From a virus (Duplodnaviria > Caudoviricetes), in the IMG/VR virus record IMGVR_UViG_3300042542_006078: a stretch of 64,000 bases of DNA. The stretch is one strand, 5' to 3'. Position 1 is the stretch's first letter. Each line of letters opens with the position of its first letter. The notes below the pieces were generated by a model. The model was not told the DNA's origin. It ran no database searches and was given only the letters and a program-made list of their open reading frames with translations. A program made the translations under genes and the position numbers. Shown here piece by piece: positions 5,335 to 43,316 of the stretch.

Positions 5335-5405
5335 AATTTTAATTTAGCACAATTAAAATTAAAAAAAAACCCTAAATATAACAAACCTATTTACGAGGGT
5401 AAAAA

Positions 5406-6014: not shown

Positions 6015-6136
6015 AAAAATTAATTTATATTTGAAATTCAAAAGCCAGTTGTTATGACAACTGGCTTTAATCATTTAATGGCTGGTGAAAAATATAGACG
6101 AAAATTATAATATAATCAATAATAGATATTTTAATT

Positions 6137-13817: not shown

Positions 13818-14561
13818 ATGGAAAAACCTAAATGGACGATAGGAACTGTGAATTGGAAATCAATTGAATTCATTGAATATCAATTGAAATATTTTCATGA
13901 ATACAATCAAGACTTTGAATTTATAGTTTGTGATAATGAAAGCAATGTTGAAACTCCTAAATTCAAAGATCTCAAAGAGAAATATCCAAAATTAAAATTG
14001 GTGAATTCGCAATCGAGGAATTGTGCATGGAGCGCACACGGAATTGGTCTCAATCAATGCATGAAAATCGCAGAAGGAAAATACATCTTGTTAATGGACC
14101 CAGACTTTTTCTGGATGAAGAAAGATATTCTTTCATTTTTTGAAAATTATTTCAAAATGGGATATCACGCTATTGGAACAGAATATGCCGGAACTGACTT
14201 TCCAATGCCTTGGGGAGCAGCTTATATTACTGATGAAATTAATGATTTAGATTTAATCGTAAAAACATCTATTTGTGAAAAATGTAACATTTTGGTTTAT
14301 GATAAAATGTATGACACCGGATGGCAACTCAGAATACGATTAAGCAATAAACCACATCATGCATTCAAACAAGTTTTGAATCAAATTCCAAATCTAGGAA
14401 GATACAACACTAATTGGTCGCAAACATATATTCATGATAACAAAGCTATAGCTCACCATTTCAAAAGCGGGAGTCAAATAGAAAAAACATATAATGAACA
14501 ACAAGTTAAAGAAATAAGAGAAAAATATACAGATTGGATGTGGAATCAATTATATGATTAA
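13818..14561 (+). CDS. Glycosyltransferase GT2-like, tandem copy 1
   Basis: FEFIVCDN, HGIGLN, YILLMDPDFFW. Confidence 0.8.
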   Translation: MEKPKWTIGTVNWKSIEFIEYQLKYFHEYNQDFEFIVCDNESNVETPKFKDLKEKYPKLKLVNSQSRNCAWSAHGIGLNQCMKIAEGKYILLMDPDFFWMKKDILSFFENYFKMGYHAIGTEYAGTDFPMPWGAAYITDEINDLDLIVKTSICEKCNILVYDKMYDTGWQLRIRLSNKPHHAFKQVLNQIPNLGRYNTNWSQTYIHDNKAIAHHFKSGSQIEKTYNEQQVKEIREKYTDWMWNQLYD

Positions 14562-14590
14562 TTTTAATTTATATTTTACTAAATTAGTTC

Positions 14591-15337
14591 ATGTCGAACA
14601 AATGGACGATAGGAACTGTGAATTGGAAATCAATTGAATTCATTGAATATCAATTGAAATATTTTCATGAATTTTCTGATGACTTTGAATTCATAGTTTG
14701 CGATAATGAAAGTAGTGTTGAAACTCCTAAATTCAAAGATCTTAAAGAGAAACATCCAAAATTAAAATTGATAAATCAACATTGGAAAAGTGATTCATGG
14801 GCCGCACACGGAATTGGTCTCAATCAATGCATGAAAATCGCAGAAGGAAAATACATCTTGTTAATGGACCCAGACTTTTTCTGGATAAAGAAAGATATAC
14901 TTTCATTTTTTGAACACTATTTCGATCAAGGCTACCATGCAATTGGAGCAAATTACATGCATATGAGAACAAGTTTTCCAATGATTTGGGCAGGAGCTTA
15001 TATCACTGATGAAATTAGAGATTTAGATTTGATGACAAGAAATCCTCGATGCGAATCTTGCAAAAATTGTATTTATGATAGAGATTACGATACTGGTTGG
15101 CAAATCAAGATAAGACTTGGTAATAAACCTCACTATTCATTTGAACAAATTCAAAACCAAGTTCCAAATTTCGGCAAATATAATAATAGAGACTCAGAAA
15201 CATATGTTTATGATACAAAAGTTATAGCTCACCACTTAAAAAGTGGAAGTCAAATAGAGGAAGATTATACCCAAGAAAAAATCAAAGAAATAAGAGAAAG
15301 ATACACAGAATGGATGTGGAGTCAATTATACGATTGA
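14591..15337 (+). CDS. Glycosyltransferase GT2-like, tandem copy 2
   Basis: Same motifs, DPD. Confidence 0.8.
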   Translation: MSNKWTIGTVNWKSIEFIEYQLKYFHEFSDDFEFIVCDNESSVETPKFKDLKEKHPKLKLINQHWKSDSWAAHGIGLNQCMKIAEGKYILLMDPDFFWIKKDILSFFEHYFDQGYHAIGANYMHMRTSFPMIWAGAYITDEIRDLDLMTRNPRCESCKNCIYDRDYDTGWQIKIRLGNKPHYSFEQIQNQVPNFGKYNNRDSETYVYDTKVIAHHLKSGSQIEEDYTQEKIKEIRERYTEWMWSQLYD

Positions 15338-15383
15338 TTTTAATTTTCACTGCAATAAATGTCGAAAACAAGATTGAGGATTT

Positions 15384-16130
15384 ATGGATAAATTAAAATG
15401 GACGGTAGGAATAGTAAACTCAGATTCTTTAGAATTTATTGAACATCAATTGAAATATTTTCACGAATTTTGTAGTGATTTTGAGTTTATTGTTTATGAT
15501 AAAGATAACATTAAAAAAAATACTTTTTTAGATGATCTTAGCAAAAAATATAAAAACACAAGAATAATTCAGACTCCTAGTTTATCACATGGAATGCATT
15601 CTTATGGACTTGGATTGAACGCTTGTGTTCAAATGGCTAAAGGAAAATATATCTTGTTAATGAACCCAGACTTTTTCTGGATGAAGAAAGATATACTTTC
15701 ATTTTTTGAACATTATTTCGATCAAGGATATCATGCAATAGGAACAGAATATTGGAGTCATTCTTTTCCAATGCCTTGGGGAGCCTCTTACATCACAGAT
15801 GAGATTAGAGATTTAGATCTAAGAGCAAAAGCCCATCCTTGCGATAAATGTCACACTTGGGCCTCTGATCGTGATCACGATACTGGTTTTCAAATAAAAA
15901 TAAGACTAAAAAATAAACCATTCTTTTTCTTCAGATCTTCTAAAAATAATCAAATTCCTGATTTGGGAAAATCAAACACCATATACGCACAAACATTCGT
16001 CTATGACGAAAAAAACATTGCACATAATTTGAATGGTGGTTGCCAACAAAAAGAAGGACAAAATAAAGATGAACTGATTGCGATTAAAAAGAAGTACGCA
16101 GAATGGATGTGGAGTCAATTATATGATTAA
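15384..16130 (+). CDS. Glycosyltransferase GT2-like, tandem copy 3
   Basis: Same motifs, DxD changed to NPD. Confidence 0.8.
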   Translation: MDKLKWTVGIVNSDSLEFIEHQLKYFHEFCSDFEFIVYDKDNIKKNTFLDDLSKKYKNTRIIQTPSLSHGMHSYGLGLNACVQMAKGKYILLMNPDFFWMKKDILSFFEHYFDQGYHAIGTEYWSHSFPMPWGASYITDEIRDLDLRAKAHPCDKCHTWASDRDHDTGFQIKIRLKNKPFFFFRSSKNNQIPDLGKSNTIYAQTFVYDEKNIAHNLNGGCQQKEGQNKDELIAIKKKYAEWMWSQLYD

Positions 16131-16159
16131 TTTTAATTTATATTTTACTAAATTAATTT

Positions 16160-16912
16160 ATGTCGAAAAAATGGACAATAGCTTTAGTTAACTGGAATTC
16201 TTTTGAATTCATTGAATATCATGCTAAATTTTTCCATTCATTTTGTGATGATTTTGAGTTTTTAGTTTGTGATAATACAAGTCCTTATCAGTCAGAAGAA
16301 TTAGATGCTATTGCTGAAAAGTATGAAAAAGTAAAAATTATTTATCCTGATGGTAAAAACTTATCTCACGGAGGTGGAATCAATAATTGTTTAGGTGAGG
16401 CATCAGGTAAATATATTTTGATTATGGACCCAGATTTTTTCTGGATGAAGAAGTCTATCTTAAAAATTTTTGAACATTATTTTGATCAGGGTTATCATGC
16501 GATTGGAACGGAATTTTGGGATCATCCATTTCCGATGCCTTGGGGAGCAGCATACTACACTGATGAAATTCGTGATTTAGATTGTACTGCCAGAGTTGAA
16601 AAATATTGTGATAAATGTAATAACAAGATTTTGGACAAGTGGTCTGATACTGGCTGGGAGATAAGAGTTAGGTTGCATAATCAGCCTCATTTTGGTTTTA
16701 GAAGAGTTATGTCTACATGTGTTCCTTATATGGGAAATCATTTTTATGCATTTAGGCCGATCAGCTTTGTATATGATGGTAATTTTATTGCTCATCATTT
16801 GATGAGGGGAGAATACAAGGACACAGATTGGCATAAGGATTTTGTTAATGATGAGATGATTTCTGCGAGAAAAAATTACATTGAATATTTCTGGAACAAT
16901 TTACAAGATTGA
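16160..16912 (+). CDS. Glycosyltransferase GT2-like, tandem copy 4
   Basis: Same motifs, DPD; most divergent copy. Confidence 0.8.
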   Translation: MSKKWTIALVNWNSFEFIEYHAKFFHSFCDDFEFLVCDNTSPYQSEELDAIAEKYEKVKIIYPDGKNLSHGGGINNCLGEASGKYILIMDPDFFWMKKSILKIFEHYFDQGYHAIGTEFWDHPFPMPWGAAYYTDEIRDLDCTARVEKYCDKCNNKILDKWSDTGWEIRVRLHNQPHFGFRRVMSTCVPYMGNHFYAFRPISFVYDGNFIAHHLMRGEYKDTDWHKDFVNDEMISARKNYIEYFWNNLQD

Positions 16913-16918
16913 GGATTT

Positions 16919-17665
16919 ATGGCTAGGTTAAAATGGACGATAGGCACGACAAATTGGGATTCTTTGGAATTCATACAATATCATGCAAAATTTTTCCATG
17001 AATTTTGTAGTGATTTTGAATTTATTGTTTATGACAACGAGAACATTCAAGGAACTGCTTCTTTCGATGATATTCGCAAAAAATATAATAACACAAAAAT
17101 ATTTCAGACTCCTAGTGTATCGCCGGGATGTCATGGACATGGTTTGGGATTGAATGCATGTGTTCAAATGGCTAAAGGCAAATACATCTTGCTAATGAAC
17201 CCAGACTTTTTTTGGATGAAGAAAGATATATTGTCATTTTTTGAAAGTTATTTCAAGATGGGATATCATGCTATTGGCACAGAGTATTGGGGGAATACTT
17301 TCCCGATGCCTTGGGGTGCAGCTTATATTACTGATGAAATTAAAGATTTAGATTTGAGGGCTAAATCACATCCTTGCGATAAATGTAACAATTGGGTTTA
17401 TGATCGTGATTATGACACTGGTTTTCAATTAAGAATAAGACTGAAGAATAAGCCATTCTTTTTCTTTAGAGAGTCTCAAAAAAGTTCAATTCCTGATTTG
17501 GGAAAATTAAATGACATGTATTCGCAAACATTTGTGTATGATGGGCGTAACATTGCACATCATTTGAAGGGAGGTAGTCAACCAAAAGAAGGCCAGAATA
17601 GAGATGAACTGATTGCGATTAAAAAGAAGTACGCAGAATGGATGTGGAGTCAATTATATGATTGA
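16919..17665 (+). CDS. Glycosyltransferase GT2-like, tandem copy 5
   Basis: Same motifs, NPD. Confidence 0.8.
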   Translation: MARLKWTIGTTNWDSLEFIQYHAKFFHEFCSDFEFIVYDNENIQGTASFDDIRKKYNNTKIFQTPSVSPGCHGHGLGLNACVQMAKGKYILLMNPDFFWMKKDILSFFESYFKMGYHAIGTEYWGNTFPMPWGAAYITDEIKDLDLRAKSHPCDKCNNWVYDRDYDTGFQLRIRLKNKPFFFFRESQKSSIPDLGKLNDMYSQTFVYDGRNIAHHLKGGSQPKEGQNRDELIAIKKKYAEWMWSQLYD

Positions 17666-17720: not shown

Positions 17721-18797
17721 TTATACCGAAATTTCAGGATCATTTTGGACAATGTTTGGCTGATTAATTTGATTCCTACTATTCTTTGTTCTAAGCCAAT
17801 CATTAGGAAGTCCAAGACTTATTCCATATTCCTCTTCACCTTCGTATTTTCTAGCTGCCAACGGATGTCCAGAATAGGCATGTTTTCTTGTGCTCAACCA
17901 TCTATTTAATAATGTTCTATTTGGAGGATAATTACCATTAACTTTGTAATAGTTGGCAAGTTCCTCAATTTTTTGATTATTTTTTTCTTGTAATTTTTCA
18001 GTAGTAATTTGTAGTTTGAGCCAATCATTCGGAAGACCAAGACTTATTCCATATTGCTCTTCTCCTTCATACTTGTTTAATTTTCCTCTTCCTGCATATG
18101 TTTGTCTTTTTGCTTTAATCCAATTATGCAATTTTTCTTCTTCTTTTAATTTGGCAAAAGGGTATCTTTTCCATTTTGTATAAAATTCCGCAAGTTCTTC
18201 TACTTTTTTGAAATTTTGATTTTTTCTTAATTTGTCAAGTTCTACTGACAAATCTGGATTTATTGGTATCGATTCATCATTAAAAACTTTTTCTCTTTGG
18301 TCTCTAACTTTTTCTGGAACTAAAGGATTTGCGTAATTTTCTTGGAATCCCTCTGACTTAATGAATTCTTTTATGATATTTTCCATATTGTTAATTTCCC
18401 AATAAGGAATCACAAGAAGAGGAATATTGTTTTCCTTGCAAAAATCATATTTTATTTTGTCTCTTAAAACACTTCCTTTGAAATGTGTAATTTCTCTGTG
18501 CCAATGTTTGGTAAATTTATAATGTTGCGCTCCATGAAATTCAACAACATATCTTCTGTTGTTTTCCTCAACTAAAAATGAAGCATCAAATCTCAAACAT
18601 TTTTTATTGACACATTTATCAAACTGATATTGAACATCATGAGATCCAAATAATCTTTTAAGTATTTCGCCAAGTAAAACTTCACCCTTCGATATTGACG
18701 GAACTATTGATTTATTTTGTCTTATGATTGGAGAAATAGTTGCAGTGCCATCTACAAATTCTGATTCTTCTCGATATAACCAAAGTTTGAAATTCAT
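17721..18797 (-). CDS. PD-(D/E)xK (Vsr/DUF559-like) endonuclease fused to helicase-associated (HA)-like repeats
   Basis: LRFD..F....VVEFHGAQHY...RDKIKYDFCKENNIPLLVIPYW, then two ~65-aa repeats ending KYEGEE.YGISLGLPNDWL. Confidence 0.75.
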   Translation of the reverse strand: MNFKLWLYREESEFVDGTATISPIIRQNKSIVPSISKGEVLLGEILKRLFGSHDVQYQFDKCVNKKCLRFDASFLVEENNRRYVVEFHGAQHYKFTKHWHREITHFKGSVLRDKIKYDFCKENNIPLLVIPYWEINNMENIIKEFIKSEGFQENYANPLVPEKVRDQREKVFNDESIPINPDLSVELDKLRKNQNFKKVEELAEFYTKWKRYPFAKLKEEEKLHNWIKAKRQTYAGRGKLNKYEGEEQYGISLGLPNDWLKLQITTEKLQEKNNQKIEELANYYKVNGNYPPNRTLLNRWLSTRKHAYSGHPLAARKYEGEEEYGISLGLPNDWLRTKNSRNQINQPNIVQNDPEISV

Positions 18798-18957
18798 CAA
18801 TTATTTATGAAGAAATAATCGGATTTATGACAATAAAGAATAAATTATTTGCGGTTCTTCTTCATAAATCTTCCAACATTTGGAAGAATCAGGAAAACTT
18901 ACCGGATATCCCATCATCTTGAAATCAAATCCATTTTAATTGAAGCTCATCAATTAT

Positions 18958-20058
18958 TTATGAAGAAATTTCAGGATCATTTTGGACAATGTTTGGCTGA
19001 TTAATTTGATTCATACTATTCTTTGTTCTAATCCACTTTGTTCTAAGCCAATCATTAGGAAGTCCAAGACTTATTCCATATTCCTTTTCACCTTCGTATT
19101 TTGCAACAGCACCTCTTCCCTGATATGCTTGTCTTTTGCTACTAAGCCAATTTTTTAATTGTTTTTCTGATTCTATTTTGCTTCTTTCGCTGGGATATTT
19201 TCCATTATCCCTGTAAAATGCAGCAAGTTTTCTTATTCTATCGTAATGTTCTTCTTTTGTAGTAATAATTTGTGGTTTAAGCCAATCATTCGGAAGCCCA
19301 AGACTTATTCCATATTCCTCTTCACCTTCGTATTTTGCATATTTCCCTCTTCCCAGATATATTTGCCTTTTGTCAGCAAGCCATCTTCCTAATTGATTTT
19401 CTGATTCTATCTTGCTCCCAATACTGGGATATTTTCCACTATCTCTGTAAAATGAAGCAATTTCTTGTATTTTTTGATTATTTTTTTCTTGTAATTTTAA
19501 TTTTTCATTAGTAATTTGTAGTTCGAGCCAATCATTAGGAAGTCCAAGACTTATTCCATATTCTTTTTCTCCTTCATATTTTCCAACAGCACTTCTTCCC
19601 TGATATGCTTGCCTTTTGCCATTAAGCCAAATTCCTAATTGTTTTTCTGATTCTATTTTGCTAAATTGTCTGGGATATTTTCCATTATCCTTGTAAAATA
19701 CAGCAAGTTGTCTTATTTTTTGATTATTTTTTTCTTGTAATTTTTCTTCACTAAATTGTGGTTTAACCCAATCATTAGGAAGTCCAAGACTTATCCCATA
19801 TTGCTCTTCACCTTCGTATTTTGCAGCACCAGACCCTCTTCCCAGATATGCTTGTCTTCTTTTATTAAGCCATCTTCCTAATTGTTTTTCTGATTCTATT
19901 TTGCTTACAGTGCTGGGATATTTTCCATTATCCTTGTAAAATACAGCAAGTTGTCTTATTTTTTGATTATTTTTTTCTTTATTTATGGTTGGATAAATAG
20001 TTGCAGTGCCATCTGCAAATTCTGATTCTTCTCGATATAACCAAAGTTTGAAATTCAT
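18958..20058 (-). CDS. HA-like repeat protein (5 repeats), paralog without the nuclease domain
   Basis: Repeats FYKDNGKYP...SKIESEKQLG.WL...RQ.Y.G...KYEGE..YGISLGLPNDW. Confidence 0.75.
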   Translation of the reverse strand: MNFKLWLYREESEFADGTATIYPTINKEKNNQKIRQLAVFYKDNGKYPSTVSKIESEKQLGRWLNKRRQAYLGRGSGAAKYEGEEQYGISLGLPNDWVKPQFSEEKLQEKNNQKIRQLAVFYKDNGKYPRQFSKIESEKQLGIWLNGKRQAYQGRSAVGKYEGEKEYGISLGLPNDWLELQITNEKLKLQEKNNQKIQEIASFYRDSGKYPSIGSKIESENQLGRWLADKRQIYLGRGKYAKYEGEEEYGISLGLPNDWLKPQIITTKEEHYDRIRKLAAFYRDNGKYPSERSKIESEKQLKNWLSSKRQAYQGRGAVAKYEGEKEYGISLGLPNDWLRTKWIRTKNSMNQINQPNIVQNDPEISS

Positions 20059-20671
20059 CAATTATTTATGAAGAAATAATCGGATTTATGACAATAAAAA
20101 ATAAATTATTTGCGGTTCTTCTTCATAAATCTTCCAACATTTGGAAGAATCAGGAAAACTTACCGGATATCCCATCTTCCATTCTAAACTAATTCCAAGC
20201 TCATTTTTGCCAAAAGCACAATGTGTCATATTCTTGTTCCAACATTTTTCTTTGCTGGTGTGATAAATGTTTCTTGTCATGTTAAATATCAATTTTTTTC
20301 CAATTAAAAGAAAATGCGTGACTCTTAGACCAGTTGAACGAACAAGGTCTAAATACAAACCAAGAACAGTACCAAGACATTCTCCATGAATTGGATTTAC
20401 TGGCTATTCTTGAACTAGATTCCGACCTGCCAGAAGACCAACAGTAATTTTCTGATATGCTTTTAATGAACATGTTCATTTTACTTCCCATCTAAAAAAC
20501 TAATTTTAGAAATGTTGCTCCAGTTAACAGATCTTTTTGCATTGAATACATTTGATTCATAAAAATGCAAAATACCATGATCAGATCGACACAATGTGTC
20601 AAAACTAAATCTAGCAAAAGATATAAATCCCGTGAAACAAAAACATGAAGACAAATTATTTTTCTTGAAAA

Positions 20672-22567: not shown

Positions 22568-23095
22568 CTAAGAATCATTAGAATATCCATGAATTTCTAA
22601 AAAACTACTTATATCTGCAAGAAGATCAATGTTTTGCTCTACTTTTTCTTTTGGCCAATTCCACCATTCTATTTTCATTAACTGATCTATTATATTTTTT
22701 TCAAATCTATATCTAATTATTTTCGCAGGATTACCCGCAACTATGGCAAAAGGAGGCACATCTTTAGTAACAACTGATCTAGCACCAATTATAGAACCAT
22801 CACCAATAGTAACACCACCAAATATCATCGATTCTGTTCCTATCCAACAATCAGAACCAATTAAAATTGGACCCTTGTCTCTTCCCTTCGGATAACTGGA
22901 ATTAGGATAATATGACCTAAATCGAAAATTGCTCACAGTAGGATTATCCATAGATGCATGATCTATTGGACCACCACACAAAAATGTGACCCTTCTTGCT
23001 ATCCCTGAATAATTACCAACAGTAATTTGGTAATTAGGGAAATGCATGATGCAATCTTGAGCAATACTGGAAAGTGTGCCAAGAGTTATTCCCAT
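22568..23095 (-). CDS. CatB/Vat-related hexapeptide-repeat O-acetyltransferase
   Basis: IGSDCWIG, GVTIGDGSIIGARSVVTKDVPPFAIVAGNPAKIIRYRF...IEWWNW. Confidence 0.88.
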   Translation of the reverse strand: MGITLGTLSSIAQDCIMHFPNYQITVGNYSGIARRVTFLCGGPIDHASMDNPTVSNFRFRSYYPNSSYPKGRDKGPILIGSDCWIGTESMIFGGVTIGDGSIIGARSVVTKDVPPFAIVAGNPAKIIRYRFEKNIIDQLMKIEWWNWPKEKVEQNIDLLADISSFLEIHGYSNDS

Positions 23096-34270: not shown

Positions 34271-35479
34271 ATGGAACAGCCTCATTTTATATTTTTTGGG
34301 GAAGGCGATTCTCTGAGAAGAAAAGCGCCAACTGAGGAAGAGAAGTTGGTTCTTGTAGACAGGAAAGCCAAAGAGAGTCCTTTTCACAAGTTTGTTGGAA
34401 ACGACAAGGCAGTGAAGAAGTTGCAGGTTGCGGCCTATCATGCTTTGGGTCACCCTAATCACATGATGAGGGATTTGAGCTTTAGCATATTTGGGCCAGC
34501 AAGTGCAGGAAAGACGACTTTGGCAAGGATCTATGGTGAAGCAGTAAGGCTCCCATTCATCGAAATAAGTCCAAAGGGTGTTAAGGCCCTTGATGATGTA
34601 TTCGACTTTATAGACGGTGTTTTAAGCCGTGCAGGTATTGGATTGGTTGATTTAGATGAAGGCAAGCATGTTTTGCCTCCCTGTGTTTTGTTCTTTGACG
34701 AGGTCCATGCTTTATCTGATGGAATCATTCAAGGTTTGCTCAAGGCTACCGAGTTTGGCGATGCCATCATGCAGACAGAGAGCGGAAGGATTCTGGACAC
34801 ATATGCGGCAACATGGATGGTTGCCACTACAGATGAGGGAAAGTTATTTGATGCATTTAGGACTAGGTTTAATCCAATTCATCTTCAATATCTTGGCAAG
34901 AAGGATGTTGCGAAGATTGTAGGAAATAATCATCCTGATTTGTCTGAGGAAGTCTGCAACCTTGTTTCTCATTATAATCCAAGGGTTCCTAGGCAGGCAT
35001 TACAATTTGCTAGGTACATGGAAATGTATAGGAAAATGCATAATGACATGTCGTGGAAAGAAATAGCCAAGTCGGTGGCTAATGACGAAGGAATCAATGA
35101 ATATGGATTCAATGAGAATCAGATGAAGGTTTTGAAGAACCTCGAGGGTGGCGCTCTCAGTAAAAAGAACTTGGCTACGATGATTGGAAGGAAGGAAGAG
35201 GAGCTTGAGAATTACATTATTCCAACATTGATTGCAGAAACAGAAGATCAGAGTTCTCTGATTAAGAGCAGTACCAGAGGTTATATTCTTACTGATGAAG
35301 GAAGTCGTCTCTTAGTTGACATGAGGTTGTTTGACCAGTTAGCTCATGATCCGAATGGTCCTTCTGTCAACATTGATCCCAAGTATGTAATTGTGGAAGT
35401 ACTTAAAAGACTTGGTAGTGAAGAACAAAAGAAATCATTCATGAAAAGTCTGATCAAAGAAATCGAATCTATGATTTGA
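34271..35479 (+). CDS. ruvB: RuvB-like AAA+ ATPase
   Basis: Walker A GPASAGKTT, Walker B LFFDEVH, ATT...FRTRF, PRQA, C-terminal GINEYG...GGA...LA..IG...LE.YI.P.L...RG..LT winged helix. Confidence 0.75.
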   Translation: MEQPHFIFFGEGDSLRRKAPTEEEKLVLVDRKAKESPFHKFVGNDKAVKKLQVAAYHALGHPNHMMRDLSFSIFGPASAGKTTLARIYGEAVRLPFIEISPKGVKALDDVFDFIDGVLSRAGIGLVDLDEGKHVLPPCVLFFDEVHALSDGIIQGLLKATEFGDAIMQTESGRILDTYAATWMVATTDEGKLFDAFRTRFNPIHLQYLGKKDVAKIVGNNHPDLSEEVCNLVSHYNPRVPRQALQFARYMEMYRKMHNDMSWKEIAKSVANDEGINEYGFNENQMKVLKNLEGGALSKKNLATMIGRKEEELENYIIPTLIAETEDQSSLIKSSTRGYILTDEGSRLLVDMRLFDQLAHDPNGPSVNIDPKYVIVEVLKRLGSEEQKKSFMKSLIKEIESMI

Positions 35480-35735
35480 TTTCTTTGAATCAAGGTTAAC
35501 AATAAGAGAATCCATATGGATTCTCTTATTTTATTTTCAGTTGGTTGCAGAGTACAAGTGCGTAAGTTGATTTTACGCACTTGTACTTTGTCTTCATCGT
35601 GATTTTTTGAAACTGCTTCGGATTGGCAAGAAGCAAAGCCGATATATGGGTGCAACCAATCATGTTGATCACTAATTCTTGAAACTGCTTCGGATTGGGA
35701 AGAAGCAAAGCCGATATATGGTTGAGGAGAATTCA

Positions 35736-36071
35736 ATGCCAGAAGACAACAAGGTCAAGACTTCTGAATGTATTGCTGGTGATATAGTTTACACAAATTT
35801 TGCGGGGTTGAGTCAGAATTACGAACCTCGTGATTGTGCATTTTTCCATTTGTTCAAGTGGAAGGTTATTCTTCCTGAGTATTCATTGTGTGCCAGAATC
35901 CAAGATAATGGTTCTTTTGATGAGAAGCCAGTAATCATGGAAGAGTGCTACAAGACTAAGAAAGAAGCACTCTTTGCTTGTGCCCAAAGGCTACAAAGTT
36001 TTGTTGACAATATATCAGGTACTATCAATAAGGCACTTGAGCAGGCAATGCTCATCATTGATAAGGAGTAA
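35736..36071 (+). CDS. Hypothetical early protein
   Basis: After two tandem promoter copies, GAGGAG RBS. Confidence 0.65.
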   Translation: MPEDNKVKTSECIAGDIVYTNFAGLSQNYEPRDCAFFHLFKWKVILPEYSLCARIQDNGSFDEKPVIMEECYKTKKEALFACAQRLQSFVDNISGTINKALEQAMLIIDKE

Positions 36072-36074
36072 ATC

Positions 36075-37190
36075 ATGAGTAGTTTGGTTGATTCTTTGAA
36101 GAATTCTCATTTCATTTACGACTTTGGGAATGGTGTTTCCAAACCTGTTCATTATGTCAATCGTGATAGTTCGGGTAGGTGGAATTTGGCACTTCCTTAT
36201 TGCAGGGAAGAAACTGGCAAGTACATTGCTGGCCAAAGGGAAGAAAGCGGTAATATCCGTTTTTATATCAGCAAGTCTGATATGAATTTCGCAACCATTG
36301 ATGAAATGGCAGAATGGTGCGTTCAAAATGATCGTAGTATTGTTTATCGACTTTCTTCTCAATCCAACGATTCTTTCAAGGTTGATTATGAAACGATAAT
36401 TGGTTTGAGGTCTAAAAAACCAACAACTGCCAACATCAATTCTTTTCTCAATGCAATTGGTTTGGGATTCGTCAATGTCACAAGAGCTAGGAAAAACAGA
36501 AGATTATCAGGTCGTGTTGATTATGATCGTCTTGATTTAACTTATAGCATCAACAATTCAACACAAAACAGTTTAAGACAACGAAATTTTAATCTTGAAT
36601 ACTATGACGAAAAATCTTTTCACTTATTCAGTTCTTTATTGAAGGTTTTGACTCTACATCATTCTGATTCAATAGTTCAAGACAACAATTACTTTCTTGG
36701 TTTAAGCAACTTTGGTCGTGATAGTTATGATTTAGTTTTGGGTCATTTTTTAAGGTCTATAAAGACCCAGAATTGTACGAGTAATAATTTTGATCAGAAT
36801 TCTTTTGATCCCGAAAGGTTAGGTGAAATCAACAAGTTTCTTTTCCCTGCCCAGTCTATAATGCTTGCTCATATTTCATCTCAGGTTTTGAATAATCTTG
36901 ACAAGTATCAATTAGATCCAATGAATCCTAGTCTTTATATTAAATCGACAGTTGTTGATTCTTGGGGATTGAAAATTAATTATACAAACCAAGGGGCAAA
37001 TCCTATTCATTATGGATTTGACCATTTCTACTGTTCTGATTATGGATATTCTCCAAAAAGATTTATCTCAGGTTTTGTTAGAAATAGTCCTGTTGTGGAA
37101 AAGGTGAAAGAGCTTTTCCAGATGTCTGTTTCTAGAATGGATGAATGGAGGAGCAATCTTGCTTCAAGGTTGAAGAGGACTTCATCATGA
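36075..37190 (+). CDS. Hypothetical protein
   Basis: 371-aa ORF, AAGGAG RBS. Confidence 0.75.
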   Translation: MSSLVDSLKNSHFIYDFGNGVSKPVHYVNRDSSGRWNLALPYCREETGKYIAGQREESGNIRFYISKSDMNFATIDEMAEWCVQNDRSIVYRLSSQSNDSFKVDYETIIGLRSKKPTTANINSFLNAIGLGFVNVTRARKNRRLSGRVDYDRLDLTYSINNSTQNSLRQRNFNLEYYDEKSFHLFSSLLKVLTLHHSDSIVQDNNYFLGLSNFGRDSYDLVLGHFLRSIKTQNCTSNNFDQNSFDPERLGEINKFLFPAQSIMLAHISSQVLNNLDKYQLDPMNPSLYIKSTVVDSWGLKINYTNQGANPIHYGFDHFYCSDYGYSPKRFISGFVRNSPVVEKVKELFQMSVSRMDEWRSNLASRLKRTSS

Positions 37191-37480
37191 CAATTAAAAA
37201 AAAGGAAAAGGATTGGCCTAAAAGTGAAAAAGAACTCAAACCATTTTCCGTTAAAAATTTTCATTTCTATCCTTGTGTTTTTTCTTCGAGCATAGATCAA
37301 GGTTTTGTGTATTACCTTCAAAAATTTGATTGGAAGGGAATTCTTCAGATAGAACAAAATAGCCCTAGATTCAAAAACATAGAAGAAGCATATGATTACA
37401 TTGGAATGCCTTTTGATAAAACTGTTTCGGAATCGGAAGAAGCAAAGCCGATAAAACAAAGAAGGGGGAATCGCACATGA
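37187..37480 (+). CDS. Hypothetical protein (contains promoter copy 7 in its 3' end)
   Basis: ATGA overlaps with both neighbours. Confidence 0.6.
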   Translation: MTIKKKEKDWPKSEKELKPFSVKNFHFYPCVFSSSIDQGFVYYLQKFDWKGILQIEQNSPRFKNIEEAYDYIGMPFDKTVSESEEAKPIKQRRGNRT

Positions 37481-38925
37481 GTAGTGAAACAGAAGCCAAG
37501 TTGATTGCTGTTTGTGAAGACATCAAGTCTTCAAGTCAATTCCGAGAAGCAGCAGATGCCATGAGAAATGGCACAAGCATTGTTTTGTCGAGGCTCAAGA
37601 ATAATTTTGGTTCAGTAATCAATGATTCTTGTGATAAGGATGTTGCGAACCTTAAAGAAAAGATTACATCTCAGCTTGAGGGCTATTGTAATTCTTGGGT
37701 CAACAATCAATCTAATCAATTAATTGTTTTCCCAGAAGGGACAAGGTTTGTCCATCGTGAAGGTAGAGATGTTAACATTGTCATTGAGCAGAAGCCAACT
37801 GTTCGTGTGATTAATTTTCTTGGTCAAAACTACAATGTGGCATTGCCTTTCGTGCAATTCTACATTGTTTTTTCGGCGAACAATAACAACACCTTGAGGT
37901 TGATTCAGGTGAGAATTTCTGGGTCGAAGAAACCAATTTCTTCTCTCGATTCCAATGTTGAGCGTTTGCAGTTGCCCAACATGGGAAACAGTTTGTGTCT
38001 TGGTGATATTATGAATCAGGCAAGTAGTTCTTATAATCTGGAAGTTGATATTTCGACGAAGTGCAATGAAATAATCAACCTTTTCTGGCAGAGTGAGTTC
38101 AACATTGACTTATCCGAGTATTTCAGGATATGGTTGGATAGAAACTTCTCACAAGAATACCGTAAAAACGGTGATAATGGCAGCAATGTCAACATTCATG
38201 GTTGCATGGCAGCATGGCACAAGAAAAGTGCAGCAGATCCTCTTTTTGTGCTTTCCAATAGTTGCCTTTATGAATCTTATGGTCCTGTTAGTCAGTTTAT
38301 TTCAAGTGACTATAGTAGTCGCAATAATCGTGCTGTTCTGCTCAACAACATTACAGGCGTAATTCAGAGCGAGACTGAAAATTATGTCTCAAGTGTTATC
38401 AGCAGTCTGAATAGTGTTGATGTTGCAGAAGAGAATAGAAATTCGGCTCATTTAACAGTACTGACAAATAATTTGAATTATATGGTCAATCAAGCCTATT
38501 CCAATCTTTGGAAAGTTGCTCATTCCGAGCATAAGGATAAGGTCTTTGAAGACGAGAGCAGGCTTAGTAATTTGGAGAGAGATATTTCCGTTAGGGAAAG
38601 GAATTTGGGATACCAGATCAGCAATTTTAATTCTCAGAAAGAGTCTTGGGACAATCTAAGGAACCTTGTTCAGCTTGAGCTTTTCAACATTTACAACTAT
38701 TTGCAAGATGAGTTGAAAAGTGTTGAATCCATTAAGGCCAAGTTGCAACAGAATTTTGATGAACAAGGTGCTGTTCTTTCTAAGCCTCGCCGTGGAAGGC
38801 CAAAGAAGGAATCTCTTCCTCCAGATATTGAGAAAAGCATCGACTTGGTAGCAAGCAGTGGTTGTCTTGTTGGTCCTAATGGTGAGACTCTGAGAAAGCG
38901 TGGAAGGCCAAGGAAAGTTTCTTAA
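37477..38925 (+). CDS. Prokaryotic E2 (Prok-E2_D/PRTRC-B-like) ubiquitin-conjugating-fold protein with coiled coil and two AT-hooks
   Basis: EQKPTVRVINF...LPFVQFYI...LPNMGNSLCLG (Cys174)...FWQSEFN; C-terminal PRRGRPKK and RKRGRPRK. Confidence 0.7.
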   Translation: MSSETEAKLIAVCEDIKSSSQFREAADAMRNGTSIVLSRLKNNFGSVINDSCDKDVANLKEKITSQLEGYCNSWVNNQSNQLIVFPEGTRFVHREGRDVNIVIEQKPTVRVINFLGQNYNVALPFVQFYIVFSANNNNTLRLIQVRISGSKKPISSLDSNVERLQLPNMGNSLCLGDIMNQASSSYNLEVDISTKCNEIINLFWQSEFNIDLSEYFRIWLDRNFSQEYRKNGDNGSNVNIHGCMAAWHKKSAADPLFVLSNSCLYESYGPVSQFISSDYSSRNNRAVLLNNITGVIQSETENYVSSVISSLNSVDVAEENRNSAHLTVLTNNLNYMVNQAYSNLWKVAHSEHKDKVFEDESRLSNLERDISVRERNLGYQISNFNSQKESWDNLRNLVQLELFNIYNYLQDELKSVESIKAKLQQNFDEQGAVLSKPRRGRPKKESLPPDIEKSIDLVASSGCLVGPNGETLRKRGRPRKVS

Positions 38926-38951
38926 TCATCAACAATTAAGGAGAATCAAGT

Positions 38952-39947
38952 ATGTCGATTGTTACATTTCCAGTTTATTTAGCTTCTAATGGTTTTACTC
39001 CTCCTGAAAATGGAACATATTATGTTGTTGCCAAAGACGGCATTTATCTCCGAGTGGAGAGGCTACATGGTTCATCTCTTGTCAAGGTTGGCTCCATTCC
39101 TTTTCTTGACAATGCAAAGCTGAATACAAAGTTCACTTTGCCAAACATCCCTGTCAAGATCATGTATCAGGCAAAGACATTCTTCAGAACTGTCTTTTCC
39201 AATCACAGAAGCGAGTCTTATTTGACTCTTCTTTATTCAAAGAAGTTGAATGACTATAAGCTTTGGTGCCCAAACCAAACAGTGAGCTATTGTTCAGTTG
39301 ATTACGACAGAACAGATACTGTTTCTTTTGAGGAGCGTGATTATATCGGCAGCGAAGGTGCTGGATGGCAGATGGTTGGAACTATTCACTCTCATTGTGA
39401 TTTTAGTGCATTCCACAGTGGAACTGACGAGGCAGACGAGGCCAGCTTTGATGGTATTCACCTGACATTTGGCCATGTTAATTCCGACAAGTTTAGTATC
39501 GCAAGCAGCATTTGCTTTAACAACAATAGAACGAAAATGAATCCAACAGATGTCGCAGATGGACTTGTTGCTGATTCGGAAGAGGAAGTTACGGAAAAAG
39601 AAGAATATAGTCATCGTGGGTCTGTCTACGAGCGTACAACCAAAAGAACTGAGTATTGGTTCAGACTCGATGAACTCAATGAACAAGAAAAGTCTGATCA
39701 TGCTGAATTCTTGGCAAATGTCCTTCCAGCTTGGATGGAAAAAGTAACCAAGTTCGTCTCACCAATCACTGATTCTGCTCCTAGCTCTTCTTGGACTTAT
39801 CAAGATATCAAGTCCAAGAAGGATAGTGATGACGAAGAATGGTATGATATGTGGAAACTTAATCAACACAACCGTAGCCGAGGTAGAGACTCAATCTACA
39901 GGTCAGAAGAAAATTACTACGGAATTCGTGAATGGGATGGTGATTGA
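38952..39947 (+). CDS. JAB/JAMM (Mov34/MPN) metallo-isopeptidase, PRTRC-A-like
   Basis: GTIHSHCDFSAFHSGTD = HxHx7Sx2D (H146,H148,S156,D159); YVVAKDGIYLRV N-terminal block. Confidence 0.88.
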   Translation: MSIVTFPVYLASNGFTPPENGTYYVVAKDGIYLRVERLHGSSLVKVGSIPFLDNAKLNTKFTLPNIPVKIMYQAKTFFRTVFSNHRSESYLTLLYSKKLNDYKLWCPNQTVSYCSVDYDRTDTVSFEERDYIGSEGAGWQMVGTIHSHCDFSAFHSGTDEADEASFDGIHLTFGHVNSDKFSIASSICFNNNRTKMNPTDVADGLVADSEEEVTEKEEYSHRGSVYERTTKRTEYWFRLDELNEQEKSDHAEFLANVLPAWMEKVTKFVSPITDSAPSSSWTYQDIKSKKDSDDEEWYDMWKLNQHNRSRGRDSIYRSEENYYGIREWDGD

Positions 39948-40053
39948 TATATCTTGATATCAACCCATCTTTTATAAGTTTTGTTAAAACTGCTTCGGAA
40001 AGGGGAGAAGCAAAGCCGATATATGGGTGTGGTGAAAGTTTTAAGGGGGGTTG

Positions 40054-40782
40054 ATGATGCAAAAGGTTAAGGTTGTAGGGACAGGAGGAATTGGATTGTG
40101 TCTTCTTCCTGTCCTTTGTCGTTTCATTAATTACGAGGCCAAGAAATTTCCTGTTGCCGAGGTCCATCTAATAGATGGAGACGAGTTTGAGGCAAGGAAT
40201 GCCGAGAGGCAAGACTTTAACGAGATTGGCCCCAAGGCAACAGTCACTGCCAATCAGTTGAGACAAAAGTTTGGAAGGATCAGGATTGTCGATCATCCTG
40301 TTTTCCTTAGCGAAGACAATATTGTTCCTCACATTCGTGAGAACGACATTGTGATTTTGGCTGTTGACAATCACAACAGTCGTAAGATTGTGAGTGACAG
40401 AGCTATCGAGTTAAACAATATCACGGTCATAAGTGGTGGTAACGATCTTCATGATGGCAATGTGTTAATTCACATTCGTCGTGATGGAAAAGATTTGACT
40501 CCTCCCCTTGCATCACAATATCATCCAGAGATTGCAAGTCCTGACGACTTGCATCCTAGTCAGTTGAATCAGCCGGGTTCTTGTAGTCGTCAGGCTGAAC
40601 AAACTCCTCAGTTGGTGATTGTGAACAATCTGATTGCAGCGAATATGCTTTCAGCATTTTACAATCTCACCGATAGTGAGGTATTTAGAAGTAAGGTTTT
40701 GAAGAGTCCTGAGAAGTATGGAGAGGTTTTACTTGACATGGTGGTCATGTCAGGTGTTGTTCGTGATCGGTTTGTTTCCTGA
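40054..40782 (+). CDS. ThiF/E1-like adenylating enzyme
   Basis: VVGTGGIG, DGDEFE.RN.ERQ, AVDN..SRK, SGGND, GSC..Q...Q.VIVNNLIA; no CxxC zinc motifs. Confidence 0.9.
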   Translation: MMQKVKVVGTGGIGLCLLPVLCRFINYEAKKFPVAEVHLIDGDEFEARNAERQDFNEIGPKATVTANQLRQKFGRIRIVDHPVFLSEDNIVPHIRENDIVILAVDNHNSRKIVSDRAIELNNITVISGGNDLHDGNVLIHIRRDGKDLTPPLASQYHPEIASPDDLHPSQLNQPGSCSRQAEQTPQLVIVNNLIAANMLSAFYNLTDSEVFRSKVLKSPEKYGEVLLDMVVMSGVVRDRFVS

Positions 40783-40797
40783 TTAATGGGGGTTACC

Positions 40798-41073
40798 ATG
40801 AGCAATACTACTGGTTTTTCTAACAGCGTTCAGACTAATGAATCTTTGGGCCAATTGGCTCAAAGTCTTGTAAAAGTCATCCATGGTACGGCAGATGGGA
40901 TGTATCCCTTGGCCAACCACACTGTTGCTGCTGTACGCAACACATTCTCCCAGACTCACAATATCCCAGCAGATGCTGTGGCCTTTGTGAATGGTGTTAA
41001 GGTTGGAGATGACTTTCTCATTACTGAGAACTCAACACTTGAGTTCATCAAGCAAGCTGGCAAGAAGGGTTAA
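40798..41073 (+). CDS. Prokaryotic ubiquitin-like (beta-grasp) protein ending ...KQAGKKG
   Basis: VKVIHG / TVAAVR helix / IPADAVAFVNG / DDFLI / STLEF, plus a free C-terminal Gly. Confidence 0.8.
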   Translation: MSNTTGFSNSVQTNESLGQLAQSLVKVIHGTADGMYPLANHTVAAVRNTFSQTHNIPADAVAFVNGVKVGDDFLITENSTLEFIKQAGKKG

Positions 41074-41350
41074 TTCTGCCAGCGGGTGGGGGGCAAAACC
41101 ACCCTCCTCCCACCCACTCGTACAGAGGGTGAAACCATGTTCTATGTGTGAGAGAAAATTCAAGAACCTTGAATTTTCTCTTATTGGTTGCCCAGATCGT
41201 TTCCAGACGGTCTGCAATGGGGTACTCGCAAGGCAACTGGGCATGGCGAATAAACGGCAGGTGAAAGGTCGTCAACTGGTTAGGCGATTGACAGTAATCT
41301 GCTAGTGCCTTCTTTCAACCATCTGGATTTTTTCAGATGGTTGATTTTTT
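41074..41350 (+). ncRNA. Candidate structured RNA ending in an intrinsic terminator
   Basis: GC-richer segment with several stems (e.g. AGAGAAAATTCAAG/CTTGAATTTTCTCT, TGCCCAG/CTGGGCA); terminator hairpin 41315-41344 plus T-run. Confidence 0.35.
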
Positions 41351-41463
41351 ATTTCTCGATACAAGTCTGGCAGGTTTTTTGGGGCAAGATGTTATTGTCC
41401 TAAAGGGCATGACCTGCCAGACTTCAAAAAGTTCTTCTCATAATCTTGAGTAGAGTATTCTAC

Positions 41464-41505
41464 AAGGCCCCCTCCTTGCACAAAAGCAAGGAGGGGGCCT
41501 TTTTT
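41464..41505 (+). terminator. Intrinsic terminator
   Basis: AAGGCCCCCTCCTTGC/GCAAGGAGGGGGCCTT plus T-run. Confidence 0.8.
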
Positions 41506-41592: not shown

Positions 41593-42369
41593 ATGTTCAA
41601 TATCGAATCGAATTGGGGAAGGGCCGCTGTAACCGAAATGAGTGAAGTGATAATCAATAAAAACAAACCTCCTCACGATGCATTGATTGCAGGAATGTTC
41701 ACACATACAGGAACTGACATCCACTTTGGTGGACACTATCAGAGGACATTGTTTGAATACACATTGGCAGCTTATGTGAACAGGATTTGCCAGAAGAGTG
41801 GAATAAAATCAATTGGCTCAAGGATTATAAATGTTCCTCTCAAGGGAACCAATGTTTACGAACACTCATTTGAGAGCAAGGATAAGAAAGTTTTTTGGTG
41901 TTATCAATATGGATTTTGCCCAACAAATCCTTTTGATCATTTGACACTAAGCATTCTTGAGAGAGGAGTTACTAAGGGTTGTAGGAACTGTAATTACAAA
42001 GGATTTACTGATGATGATATTGAATGTTTTAACTGCCGAAATGGAGCAGTAAGAAACTTAATTCTCAATAATCCTGAATACAAAGCATTCAGGTCACACA
42101 GTTGGGAAATTTTCAAGGATTTGATCGGTGAAGAAGAAACTAATGTTCTTGAGAAGTTCAGATATCATTACATCAAGTTCCACACTGATGATTTTCTTTA
42201 TAAGCAAGAATTTTCCCCAGTCATGAGAGAATATGTTGATTCTGATAGATTTGGGGACTACTTTGAGGTTGACTTGGAGCGTGATCTTCTCATGCTTTAT
42301 CGAGATGATGAGCCAGAAGGATCGACATATGAAGATGATGAAAGCGAAGATCAAACACAAGATGACTGA
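41593..42369 (+). CDS. Hypothetical protein (CxxC motifs)
   Basis: GGAG RBS; CRNC...CFNC. Confidence 0.7.
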   Translation: MFNIESNWGRAAVTEMSEVIINKNKPPHDALIAGMFTHTGTDIHFGGHYQRTLFEYTLAAYVNRICQKSGIKSIGSRIINVPLKGTNVYEHSFESKDKKVFWCYQYGFCPTNPFDHLTLSILERGVTKGCRNCNYKGFTDDDIECFNCRNGAVRNLILNNPEYKAFRSHSWEIFKDLIGEEETNVLEKFRYHYIKFHTDDFLYKQEFSPVMREYVDSDRFGDYFEVDLERDLLMLYRDDEPEGSTYEDDESEDQTQDD

Positions 42370-42546: not shown

Positions 42547-43194
42547 ATGTTGAACGAATCTGCATCTAAAAGTCTTACTCGTGTATTAGGCCACTTTGAA
42601 AACAATTCTTTTTCCATTGTATCAGCATCAAGAGGAATATACGGCAAGGAAGAGAATAAGATAAGAACAGAGAATCTTATATCAGATGTTAGAGGTGGTG
42701 GATTTGGTTTTGTGAAGATGAAGGGTCGTTATGTAGAAGGATATGGAACAGAAGGAGAGAAGAATCCTGTCCAAGAAGATGTTTTGTTTATTGCATCTAA
42801 GCCTATGAAGGTGAATACGGAGACAACTCCAGAAGATGAATCTAGGCACAATGATGAAGTGAATTCTAAATGGAATGAAGAGTTTAAGCAAAATATGATG
42901 AAATTGGGAAACAAGTATGATCAGGAATCAATTGTTTTCAAGCCTTATGGAGAAGAAAAGGCATATTTGATTGGAACAGTAGATATTGATGAGAATGGTA
43001 AGAAGGTTTGGCCGGGACATGGTAACATGATAGAAGTTGGTGACATTCACCCCGGCAAGGCTGGAATGTTTCATACAATGTTGTGGAAAAACAAGAGGAC
43101 ATTCACATTTGAAAGCGTAGAATATCCCAAGAGCTTCATGGGATCATGGTCTGAATTCCTCCATAGAAAAGCTATCAATGAAGGAAGGGCTTAA
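42547..43194 (+). CDS. Conserved T4-like phage hypothetical protein (DUF3293-like)
   Basis: SL.RV..H....IVSASR...N....L...R..G.G...G.Y.E...KYDQESIV pattern. Confidence 0.55.
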   Translation: MLNESASKSLTRVLGHFENNSFSIVSASRGIYGKEENKIRTENLISDVRGGGFGFVKMKGRYVEGYGTEGEKNPVQEDVLFIASKPMKVNTETTPEDESRHNDEVNSKWNEEFKQNMMKLGNKYDQESIVFKPYGEEKAYLIGTVDIDENGKKVWPGHGNMIEVGDIHPGKAGMFHTMLWKNKRTFTFESVEYPKSFMGSWSEFLHRKAINEGRA

Positions 43195-43242
43195 ACTGCT
43201 TCGGATTTCCTAGAAGCAAAGCCGATAAGGTAGTGAATCAAA

Positions 43243-43316
43243 GACCTCGTAGCTCAGTCCGGTAGAGCAACGCACTTTTAATGCGTGGGTCTTGGGTTCA
43301 AATCCCAACGAGGTCA
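43243..43316 (+). tRNA. trnK: tRNA-Lys (UUU)
   Basis: Acceptor GACCTCG/CGAGGTC, D arm GCTC/GAGC, anticodon stem ACGCA/TGCGT with loop CTTTTAA, T arm TTGGG-TTCAAAT-CCCAA; no encoded CCA. Confidence 0.95.

Follow-up and report, generated by a model that had tools for sequence, protein, structure and literature searches.

A probable four-gene ubiquitin-like conjugation cassette, with an AT-hook-bearing E2-like protein, from a huge freshwater phage

The bacterial ubiquitin-like conjugation systems with a known role, type II CBASS (antiphage signalling based on cyclic oligonucleotides) and Bil, all defend cells against phages. The virus record IMGVR_UViG_3300042542_006078 of IMG/VR (Duplodnaviria; Caudoviricetes) raises the question of what such a system might do for the virus: in the stretch of 64 000 nucleotides analysed here (the window), four intact adjacent plus-strand genes at 37477–41073 encode, in order, a candidate conjugating enzyme (E2), a JAB metallopeptidase, a candidate activating enzyme (E1) and a ubiquitin-like protein (Ubl). 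We conclude that the phage very probably carries a genuine four-part Ubl conjugation cassette. E2–JAB–E1–Ubl kits are known in bacteria and their location on a phage is what is new here; a second novelty is the E2, which has a helix of ~105 residues and two AT-hooks. The genes lie within a run of plus-strand genes that occupies 35.5–41.5 kb of the window in the list of open reading frames (ORFs), and are as follows.

37477–38925, plus strand: E2-like conjugating enzyme of 482 residues (alignment, AlphaFold2 model, Foldseek and the Prok-E2_D matches of its relatives)
38952–39947, plus strand: JAB/JAMM metallopeptidase of 331 residues with an N-terminal extension (Glu88, His146, His148, Ser156 and Asp159)
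40051–40782, plus strand: minimal ThiF-type E1 of 243 residues, with a likely start at the ATG at 40054 or 40057 (Pfam ThiF and invariant residues)
40786–41073, plus strand: ubiquitin-like β-grasp protein of 95 residues, or 91 from 40798 (model and conserved C-terminus)

An earlier reading of the DNA, made from the letters alone (the sequence-only reading), had proposed this set of four adjacent plus-strand genes with intact catalytic signatures: an E2-like protein with LPNMGNSLCLG (Cys174) and FWQSEFN, a JAB protein with the JAMM motif HxHx7Sx2D, a ThiF/E1 protein with GxGGIG, DxD, RQ and a GSC cysteine and without CxxC, and a small β-grasp protein ending in QAGKKG. All four ORFs were confirmed, and each signature was recovered at the residues given below.

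The E1 matches Pfam ThiF with an E-value of 3e-15 and is a single adenylation domain of 243 residues with no extra domain; the JAB gene lies immediately upstream. It displays GTGGIG at residues 10–15, DGD at 42–44, RQ at 53–54 and GSC at 176–178. In the alignment with seven homologues from diverged contigs, G10-x-G-G-I-G15, Asp42, Asp44, Arg53-Gln54, Lys62, Asp106 and Cys178 are invariant, Cys178 being the single invariant cysteine. The protein has three cysteines in all, no CxxC and no rhodanese domain. The closest solved structures by sequence are those of MoeB, Uba4 and ThiF, and the best NCBIfam match is PRTRC_ThiF (1.2e-12, residues 5–206, on a profile of 245 positions), far under the cutoff of that model.

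The JAB protein contains HSHCDFSAFHSGTD at residues 146–159, which reads as HxHx7Sx2D through His146, His148, Ser156 and Asp159, and the upstream Glu88 completes the JAMM signature. Its match to Pfam Prok-JAB reaches 4.7e-5 (23.7 bits, with a cutoff of 25), and that to NCBIfam PRTRC_A reaches 1.6e-9 over residues 14–195, including the N-terminal extension, under the cutoff. Four weak matches to the JAB protein were found among plasmids.

The Ubl comprises 95 residues from 40786 or 91 from 40798 and ends in AGKKG. Of the two starts, the second is preceded by the better ribosome-binding site, which is G-rich, and is also where several of the homologues begin. The N-terminus is disordered; the remainder is modeled as β-β-α-β-β-β with a predicted local distance difference test score (pLDDT) of 69. 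The leading structural matches are all β-grasp proteins (NEDD8, SUMO1, ubiquitin, TGS and MoaD), with a probability of 1.0 and TM-scores of 0.5–0.65, and model residues 28–95 align with residues 23–97 of SUMO1 through to the C-terminal glycine. The β-grasp assignment of the sequence-only reading is thus borne out, with NEDD8, SUMO and ubiquitin matched to that glycine. The C-terminus [AS]G-x-KG, followed by the stop codon, recurs in eight loci, including very diverged forms of 153–162 residues. Two homologues have four extra residues past the glycine, the pattern expected if the JAB protein trims precursors.

The E2-like protein carries LPNMGNSLCLG at residues 166–176, which include Cys174, and FWQSEFN at 203–209. 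Thirteen homologues were retrieved from 5.8 billion proteins, two of them with a precomputed Prok-E2_D domain. Asn168, Cys174, Gly176, Trp204, Ser206, Phe208 and Asn209 are invariant in the alignment with these 13 proteins, as is His325, further downstream of Cys174. Scanned singly, six of the 13 family members match Pfam PF14460 (Prok-E2_D), the best at 1.6e-7, and the E2 fusion protein of contig L010 matches it at 1.2e-6, over the cutoff. In a wider set of 83 relatives, LPN precedes the cysteine in 68 and corresponds to the 'HPN' motif of E2 enzymes with Leu replacing His; 24 of the 83 have His immediately ahead of [FY]W-x-S, a position that Leu203 fills in the protein from the window.

An AlphaFold2 model of the E2 built from the alignment (pLDDT 72) shows a long helix, a β-meander (residues 89–163), the loop with LPN and Cys174, a short helix and more helices. 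The overall layout consists of an N-terminal long helix (residues 4–79), a UBC-like core (residues ~81–260), a helical region with the invariant segment E319-N-R-N-x3-H325, a single helix of ~105 residues (321–426) and a tail with the AT-hooks. The top Foldseek matches in the PDB are UBE2W, Cdc34, UBE2A and UBE2D (E-values of ~0.08–0.3 and probability up to 0.77). On re-alignment of the model, about 30 of the 50 entries listed are E2 enzymes, with Z scores of 4.7–5.9 over 115–130 residues, and in these model residues 81–260 are set against a nearly full-length E2. The candidate, whose fold the sequence-only reading had named as a point to check, is UBC-like in the model: E2 enzymes dominate the best structural matches, and relatives match Prok-E2_D. 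The structural scores are middling and would not be proof alone, but they agree with the sequence link to Prok-E2_D. A search of the E2-family profile against PDB sequences returned coiled-coil noise only.

The C-terminal tail of the E2 contains two AT-hook cores, RGRPKK at 439–444 and RGRPRK at 475–480. Both R-G-R-P cores with their basic flanks are kept in all ten of the long-form homologues, and one family member matches Pfam AT_hook. The long helix is likely to be a coiled coil, and its combination with the AT-hooks suggests a dimeric, DNA-tethered E2.

Seven or more diverged lineages of metagenomic or viral contigs share the order E2–JAB–E1–Ubl, which was seen in the window, on the contig of P0003, on L003–L005, L008/L009 and L020, and on L010/L011, where the E2 domain forms the N-terminus of a protein of ~850 residues. 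The P0003 contig, with an E2 52% identical to that of the window, is syntenic in the flanking genes too (a RuvB-like ATPase, a 258-residue protein and an S-adenosylmethionine (SAM) lyase-like protein). On L001, L002 and L006 a second Cys-bearing E2 paralogue lies between the E2 and JAB genes. In this two-E2 variant (L001 10001–14174 and L006 705–5011), the tandem paralogues are followed by JAB, E1 and Ubl, and the flanks hold genes for an NAD-dependent DNA ligase, a thioredoxin and a calcineurin-like phosphoesterase.

The E2 gene family is large and unstudied. Against 1.84 billion representatives from public metagenomes, clustered at 50% identity, 1,824 clusters match the family profile when the limit is E ≤ 1e-3, and 702 do so when it is E ≤ 1e-10. 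Many members of ~700 residues have several hydrophobic, membrane-spanning-like segments ahead of the E2 core, as read from their sequences, which suggests membrane-anchored versions of the conjugating enzyme. Such N-terminal fusions to the E2-D core include the metagenomic proteins P0085, P0086, P0096, P0114 and P0141 (689–789 residues) and that of L019. In species genomes, E2 relatives occur on two contigs among 185,579 genomes, both in metagenome-assembled genomes (MAGs) of the candidate phyla radiation: L017 (Candidatus Vogelbacteria, 34 kb), with a 712-residue E2 fusion, JAB and E1 in cassette order, and L018 (Paceibacterota). They may stem from phage contigs that were put in the wrong bin, or they may point to hosts.

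Our conclusion is that a huge freshwater phage carries the cassette. A copy of the E2 with 98% identity lies on a 36 kb IMG/VR viral contig (L007), the nearest record, in which no terminase gene was found; CheckV estimates L007 to be ~8% complete, which at this length suggests a genome of several hundred kilobases. Cassettes with 28% identity lie on viral contigs of 102 and 144 kb (L008 and L009; 21% and 33% complete), which encode a large terminase (1e-12) and are labelled 'provirus' by IMG/VR. None of the 72,556 plasmids searched by tblastn with the E2 yielded a homologue, and neither blastn with the cassette nor tblastn with the E2 gave a match in 50,697 GenBank phages. The window itself holds an HNH homing endonuclease gene, a SAM-lyase-like gene and a tRNA-Lys gene, all typical of phages, as well as many small ORFs, and its stretch is nearly complete in lake-water and freshwater metagenomes from ~18 studies. 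The viral origin proposed in the sequence-only reading is thereby upheld through the near-identical viral contig, the terminase-bearing relatives and the plasmid search; that reading had also named a bacterial plasmid or integrative and conjugative element (ICE), where PRTRC operons are routine, as an origin that would speak against it, and no plasmid homologue of the E2 was found.

Among known systems, the cassette resembles most closely the operon type 6d of Iyer, Burroughs and Aravind (2006), which combines a separate rhodanese-less E1, a JAB protein with an N-terminal domain and a small Ubl with a C-terminal glycine (PMC1779556). The E2 of that type (Pfam Prok-E2_D, PF14460) has the cysteine and lacks the usual His of HPN; further features are an absolutely conserved His downstream of the cysteine, on a helix near the active site, a JAB-N domain with conserved Arg and Trp, and a separate α-helical protein with conserved polar residues (PMC1779556). 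The window likewise has a separate, rhodanese-less ThiF-type E1 gene adjoining the JAB gene, a small β-grasp Ubl with a conserved C-terminal glycine, and an E2 with the conserved cysteine and LPN in place of HPN, whose relatives match PF14460 (six of the 13 homologues), whereas the protein itself is too diverged to do so. With regard to the conserved His of type 6d, the residue before FWQS in the window is Leu203 (His in 24 of 83 relatives), and a different invariant His, His325, is found further downstream. The PRTRC_A profile aligns with JAB residues 14–195 and spans the N-terminal extension, a possible counterpart of JAB-N. No gene for a separate α-helical protein is conserved across the cassette lineages; the helical region with the invariant ENRN-x3-H follows the core within the same E2 polypeptide. 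The cassette of the window also differs in being phage-borne and in the long helix and two AT-hooks at the end of its E2.

The sequence-only reading had called the operon PRTRC-type (ParB-related, ThiF-related cassette), after the systems of plasmids and ICEs (NCBIfam TIGR03735/TIGR03736 and partners). This holds insofar as PRTRC_A and PRTRC_ThiF are the best NCBIfam matches of JAB and E1, over nearly the full profile length, with the same size and architecture of both proteins, and there is a link to DNA on both sides (ParB in PRTRC, AT-hooks here). It does not hold at the level of membership: the matches score 37.6 against a cutoff of 101.8 bits (PRTRC_A) and 47.6 against 144.75 bits (PRTRC_ThiF), nothing matched PRTRC_B, PRTRC_C or PRTRC_E, the E2, the Ubl and a 371-residue protein encoded upstream having no NCBIfam match at E ≤ 0.1, and a scan of the neighbours revealed no ParB domain. 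By its sequence features, the cassette is placed in the uncharacterised 6d/E2-D class, which includes PRTRC. It is a complete 6d-class set on the side of the virus, with a gene order kept across very diverged phage contigs. Predictions of this class go back to 2006, and the literature searched yielded no report of what it does.

Cultured jumbo phages with genomes of 186–230 kb also have adjacent E2-D-like, JAB and ThiF genes (VPHD69_0301–0304 of Vibrio phage D69 and gp214–216 of Bacillus phage vB_BceM_WH1). These sets share 23–31% identity with the window but their E2s have no AT-hooks and no adjacent Ubl was recognised, a 95-residue neighbour in D69 not ending in Gly. Nearly all of the proteins are annotated 'hypothetical protein', the sole named one being WH1 gp216 (ThiF family adenylyltransferase). 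They offer a route to genetics in cultured phages. We found no paper describing phage E1/E2/JAB/Ubl systems in a search whose coverage lacked most subscription journals; a broad survey of jumbo phages does not mention JAB, ThiF or E2-like genes (PMC7824862), and in a review from 2026 ubiquitin signalling is listed under giant eukaryotic viruses and not under phages (PMC13359090).

The surroundings of the four genes bear on when they might be expressed. The flanking features are as follows.

35616–35644 and 35688–35716, plus strand: two full promoter-like motif copies, after a terminator-like hairpin at 35501–35530
35736–36071, plus strand: small ORF (111 residues, ATG at 35736), the first gene downstream of these two motif copies, with no family match
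36075–37190, plus strand: 371-residue protein with no family match, its N-terminus alone weakly conserved in related contigs
37187–37480, plus strand: conserved 97-residue protein, with ATGA overlaps with the stop of the 371-residue gene and the E2 start
37425–37453, plus strand: degenerate motif copy inside the 97-residue gene, with one core mismatch and the conserved 3' half missing
39993–40021, plus strand: canonical intergenic motif copy, ~30 nt upstream of the E1 ribosome-binding site
41074–41344, plus strand: structured non-coding 3' region of ~240 nt and then an intrinsic-terminator-like hairpin at 41315–41344 (folding)
41464–41501, plus strand: second terminator-like hairpin

The motif CTTCGG-N9-GAAGCAAAGCCGATA occurs in 26 copies between 30079 and 61316, on the plus strand only, with zero expected by chance. 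Set in register, the copies form a conserved block of ~45 nt with a 6 bp inverted repeat around a variable loop and end in TATATGGGTGT; the conserved 3' half is TATGGGTGT. The motif usually lies 30–40 nt before a Shine–Dalgarno sequence and ATG and resembles a promoter that serves a transcription class specific to the phage. A σ70 promoter was rejected as its identity: the –35/–10 spacing does not fit, so that the motif is likely to be read by a phage-specific polymerase or factor. A scan for σ70 promoters gave ten promoter-like sites against a mean of 14.8 in shuffled sequence, i.e. fewer. Many of the copies at 49–61 kb are preceded by a second inverted repeat, ACAGACA-N4-TGTCTGT.

Two motif copies (given as 37419, before E2 and JAB, and 39987, before E1 and Ubl) had been proposed to drive the operon. 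The copy at 39993 remains a likely promoter, as a canonical intergenic copy before E1; that at 37425 does not, being degenerate (one core change, without TATGGGTGT) and intragenic, inside the 97-residue gene whose stop overlaps the E2 start. Behind the terminator at 35501 and ahead of a series of translationally coupled genes lie the full copies at 35616 and 35688, and therefore the unit containing the cassette probably starts near 35616. This transcription unit is likely to extend from 35616 to 41344, with an internal promoter before E1–Ubl. The 97-residue protein has 47% identity (3e-22) to the product of the gene at the same position in L003, matches no family, and probably belongs with the cassette in the clade of the window. 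The 371-residue protein has 28% identity (7e-07) to an L003 protein and no family match in Pfam, NCBIfam or PHROGs; it was dropped as a core cassette member, being unrelated to the N-terminal halves of the ~700-residue E2 fusions and to the gene upstream of the L009 cassette. Look-ups of both proteins in the ESM Atlas gave nothing usable.

Metatranscriptome contigs from two freshwater libraries match four short pieces of the locus (JAB, E1, the E1/Ubl junction and the 3' region) and are weak evidence that the cassette is transcribed; one further RNA run gave no cassette match. The ~240 nt after the Ubl stop fold with –112.5 kcal/mol (z = –5.6 relative to shuffles) and match no Rfam family; the region 41074–41344 may be a structured 3' untranslated region or a small RNA. 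One metatranscriptome contig covers 41123–41307 of it, and a further inverted repeat lies between the two terminators (41345–41464).

From the conserved residues and established E1/E2 chemistry, a cascade may be proposed in which the E1, presumably a homodimer like MoeB and ThiF, would adenylate the C-terminal glycine of the Ubl, which would then form a thioester on the invariant Cys178 and be handed to Cys174 of the E2. The cassette is without an E3 gene, and the E2 itself would choose the target lysines. The JAB protein would trim the short C-terminal extensions of some Ubl homologues and reverse conjugation. From its long helix and two AT-hooks we infer that the E2 would work bound to AT-rich DNA and modify DNA-proximal proteins, either host nucleoid proteins or the replication and transcription machinery of the phage itself. 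The membrane-spanning-like segments on E2s of other lineages suggest that the appended module sets the site of tagging. The cassette, next to the SAM-lyase-like gene, is part of a same-strand gene block that the 26-copy motif serves, a context that fits a pre-late takeover or establishment function. We rank a DNA-proximal role in takeover or establishment first, as it is the sole reading that uses all of the conserved features. Taken as a whole, a working Ubl conjugation cascade of the 6d/E2-D class in a very large freshwater phage, together with this DNA-proximal mechanism, is the explanation that we hold to be somewhat probable; the idea of DNA-proximal targets, judged by itself, is tentative. 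The AT-hooks of the E2 turn the question of where proteins are tagged into a concrete idea that can be tested. A still broader proposal is that large phages of several lineages encode complete Ubl systems, each targeted by a module on its E2 (AT-hooks to DNA, elsewhere segments to the membrane), and that here nucleoid-associated, defence or phage genome-bound proteins are tagged to take over or protect the replication compartment. We regard it as rather unlikely in this full form; if true, bacterial viruses would have a counterpart to the way in which eukaryotic viruses manipulate ubiquitin and SUMO, and the 6d/PRTRC class would gain its first function.

Several points weigh against this interpretation. 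The structural matches of the E2 are middling, with Foldseek E-values of ~0.08 and VIA Z scores of 5–6 that lie in the range of unrelated entries, and the Cys174 loop has a pLDDT of ~52 in the model. In direct family searches (Pfam at E-values up to 10 including sub-domains, NCBIfam, PADLOC and PHROGs), the E2 and Ubl of the window itself match no model. DNA binding by the AT-hooks, dimerization through the long helix and the kind of protein targeted are predictions, and so is conjugation by any member of the 6d/E2-D class. The contigs from the RNA libraries could be carried-over DNA. No hallmark gene (capsid or terminase) was found in the window, and the identity of its genome as a phage leans on the IMG/VR class of the near-identical contig.

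Of the other explanations, a counter-defence kit survives best, although we consider it improbable. In this explanation the phage JAB would strip conjugates, of Ubl or of cGAS, that Bil or type II CBASS of the host had formed, and the Ubl, E1 and E2 might compete with defence proteins or mis-tag them. The known phage members of the SAM-lyase family are anti-restriction enzymes, and the cassette lies beside a SAM-lyase-like gene within a block of pre-late-looking genes; moreover, the bacterial Ubl systems characterised so far are antiphage (PMC11601596). However, stripping would take no more than a deconjugase, whereas very diverged lineages retain all four genes, with the catalytic cysteines and the Ubl C-terminus invariant, and the AT-hooks of the E2 would be left unexplained. 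Nor are the proteins close to those of Bil or to Cap2/Cap3. Bil (BilABCD) likewise comprises a Ubl, E2, JAB and E1 with no E3, so that its E2 probably picks targets directly, but Bil E1s are multi-domain (PMC11601596), whereas that of the window is a single 243-residue adenylation domain; the E2, JAB and Ubl have no PADLOC match and the system is encoded by a phage and not by a host. The E1 and E2 of the window are separate genes, and the PADLOC E1–E2 matches on the E1 are weak (5e-5). Cap2 of CBASS is, by contrast, an E1–E2 fusion encoded beside a CD-NTase. No nucleotidyltransferase was found among the neighbours scanned. Membership of Bil or CBASS is ruled out by the E1 architecture, the separate E1 and E2 genes and the PADLOC results.

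It is more doubtful still that the cassette is a phage-borne defence which, like bacterial Bil, attaches its tag to the structural proteins of phages infecting the same cell or of other mobile elements: besides the missing sequence-level membership of Bil, no CapW, CapH or CapP regulators were found among the neighbours scanned, and a DNA-tethered E2 would be an odd design for the tagging of tail proteins. A very improbable alternative is that no protein is conjugated at all and that the E1 and Ubl are a sulfur-carrier/adenylation pair (as ThiF/ThiS or MoeB/MoaD) for a cofactor, tRNA thiolation or a small molecule. MoeB, Uba4 and ThiF are indeed the closest solved relatives of the E1 by sequence, and the Ubl model matches MoaD too, but conservation of the pair goes strictly together with that of a JAB peptidase and of an E2 with an invariant cysteine, and there is neither a rhodanese nor, in contrast to the ThiF/ThiS and MoeB/MoaD pairs, a CxxC zinc site; the absence of thiamine and molybdopterin genes nearby, which the sequence-only reading had claimed, is corroborated for the neighbours scanned. 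That the window is non-viral (an ICE, a plasmid or a cellular island, settings in which PRTRC-type operons are commonplace) is scarcely credible: the 'provirus' labels of two related contigs, the candidate-phyla-radiation MAGs of both genome matches and the lack of a capsid or terminase gene within the window would point that way, but the near-identical 36 kb contig is an IMG/VR viral genome fragment, relatives carry the large terminase, the E2 has no tblastn homologue among the plasmids searched, and the window holds the HNH homing endonuclease, SAM-lyase-like and tRNA genes together with 26 same-strand copies of a motif that is not of σ70 type.

The genes around the transcription unit were also surveyed. 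Directly upstream lies a gene for a RuvB-like AAA+ ATPase (34271–35479, plus strand) with the C-terminal winged helix of RuvB (NCBIfam RuvB, 1e-20, under the cutoff; PHROG clamp loader), which is syntenic in the P0003 contig. Just downstream, the 258-residue protein (41593–42369, plus strand) contains CxxC-x12-CxxC, which is zinc-ribbon or treble-clef-like, and has no family match; it might conceivably be an E3-like partner, and a gene of the same size occupies this position in the P0003 contig. At 42547–43316 (plus strand), the SAM-lyase-like gene (Pfam PF23780, 5.4e-7) is followed by a motif copy and tRNA-Lys(UUU).

Further from the cassette, the stretches 143–7258 and 13818–17665 hold a sugar-modification cluster, which encodes a methyltransferase, glycosyltransferases and an aminotransferase, and then five tandem, nearly equal ORFs of ~248 residues; the one scanned (13818–14561) has a family-2 glycosyltransferase domain; a hexapeptide-repeat transferase is encoded at 22568–23095 on the minus strand. 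A 555-residue protein (10168–11835, minus strand) has C-terminal ankyrin repeats (Pfam Ank_2, 2.9e-14). At 17721–20061 (minus strand), the HNH homing-endonuclease-like gene (PHROG 559, 7e-19) adjoins a 367-residue ORF with a helicase-associated (HA) domain. The segment 28000–30100, where G+C falls to 0.28, genes switch from the minus to the plus strand, the GC skew changes sign and a gap is free of ORFs of 90 residues or more, may be a divergent control region or an origin.

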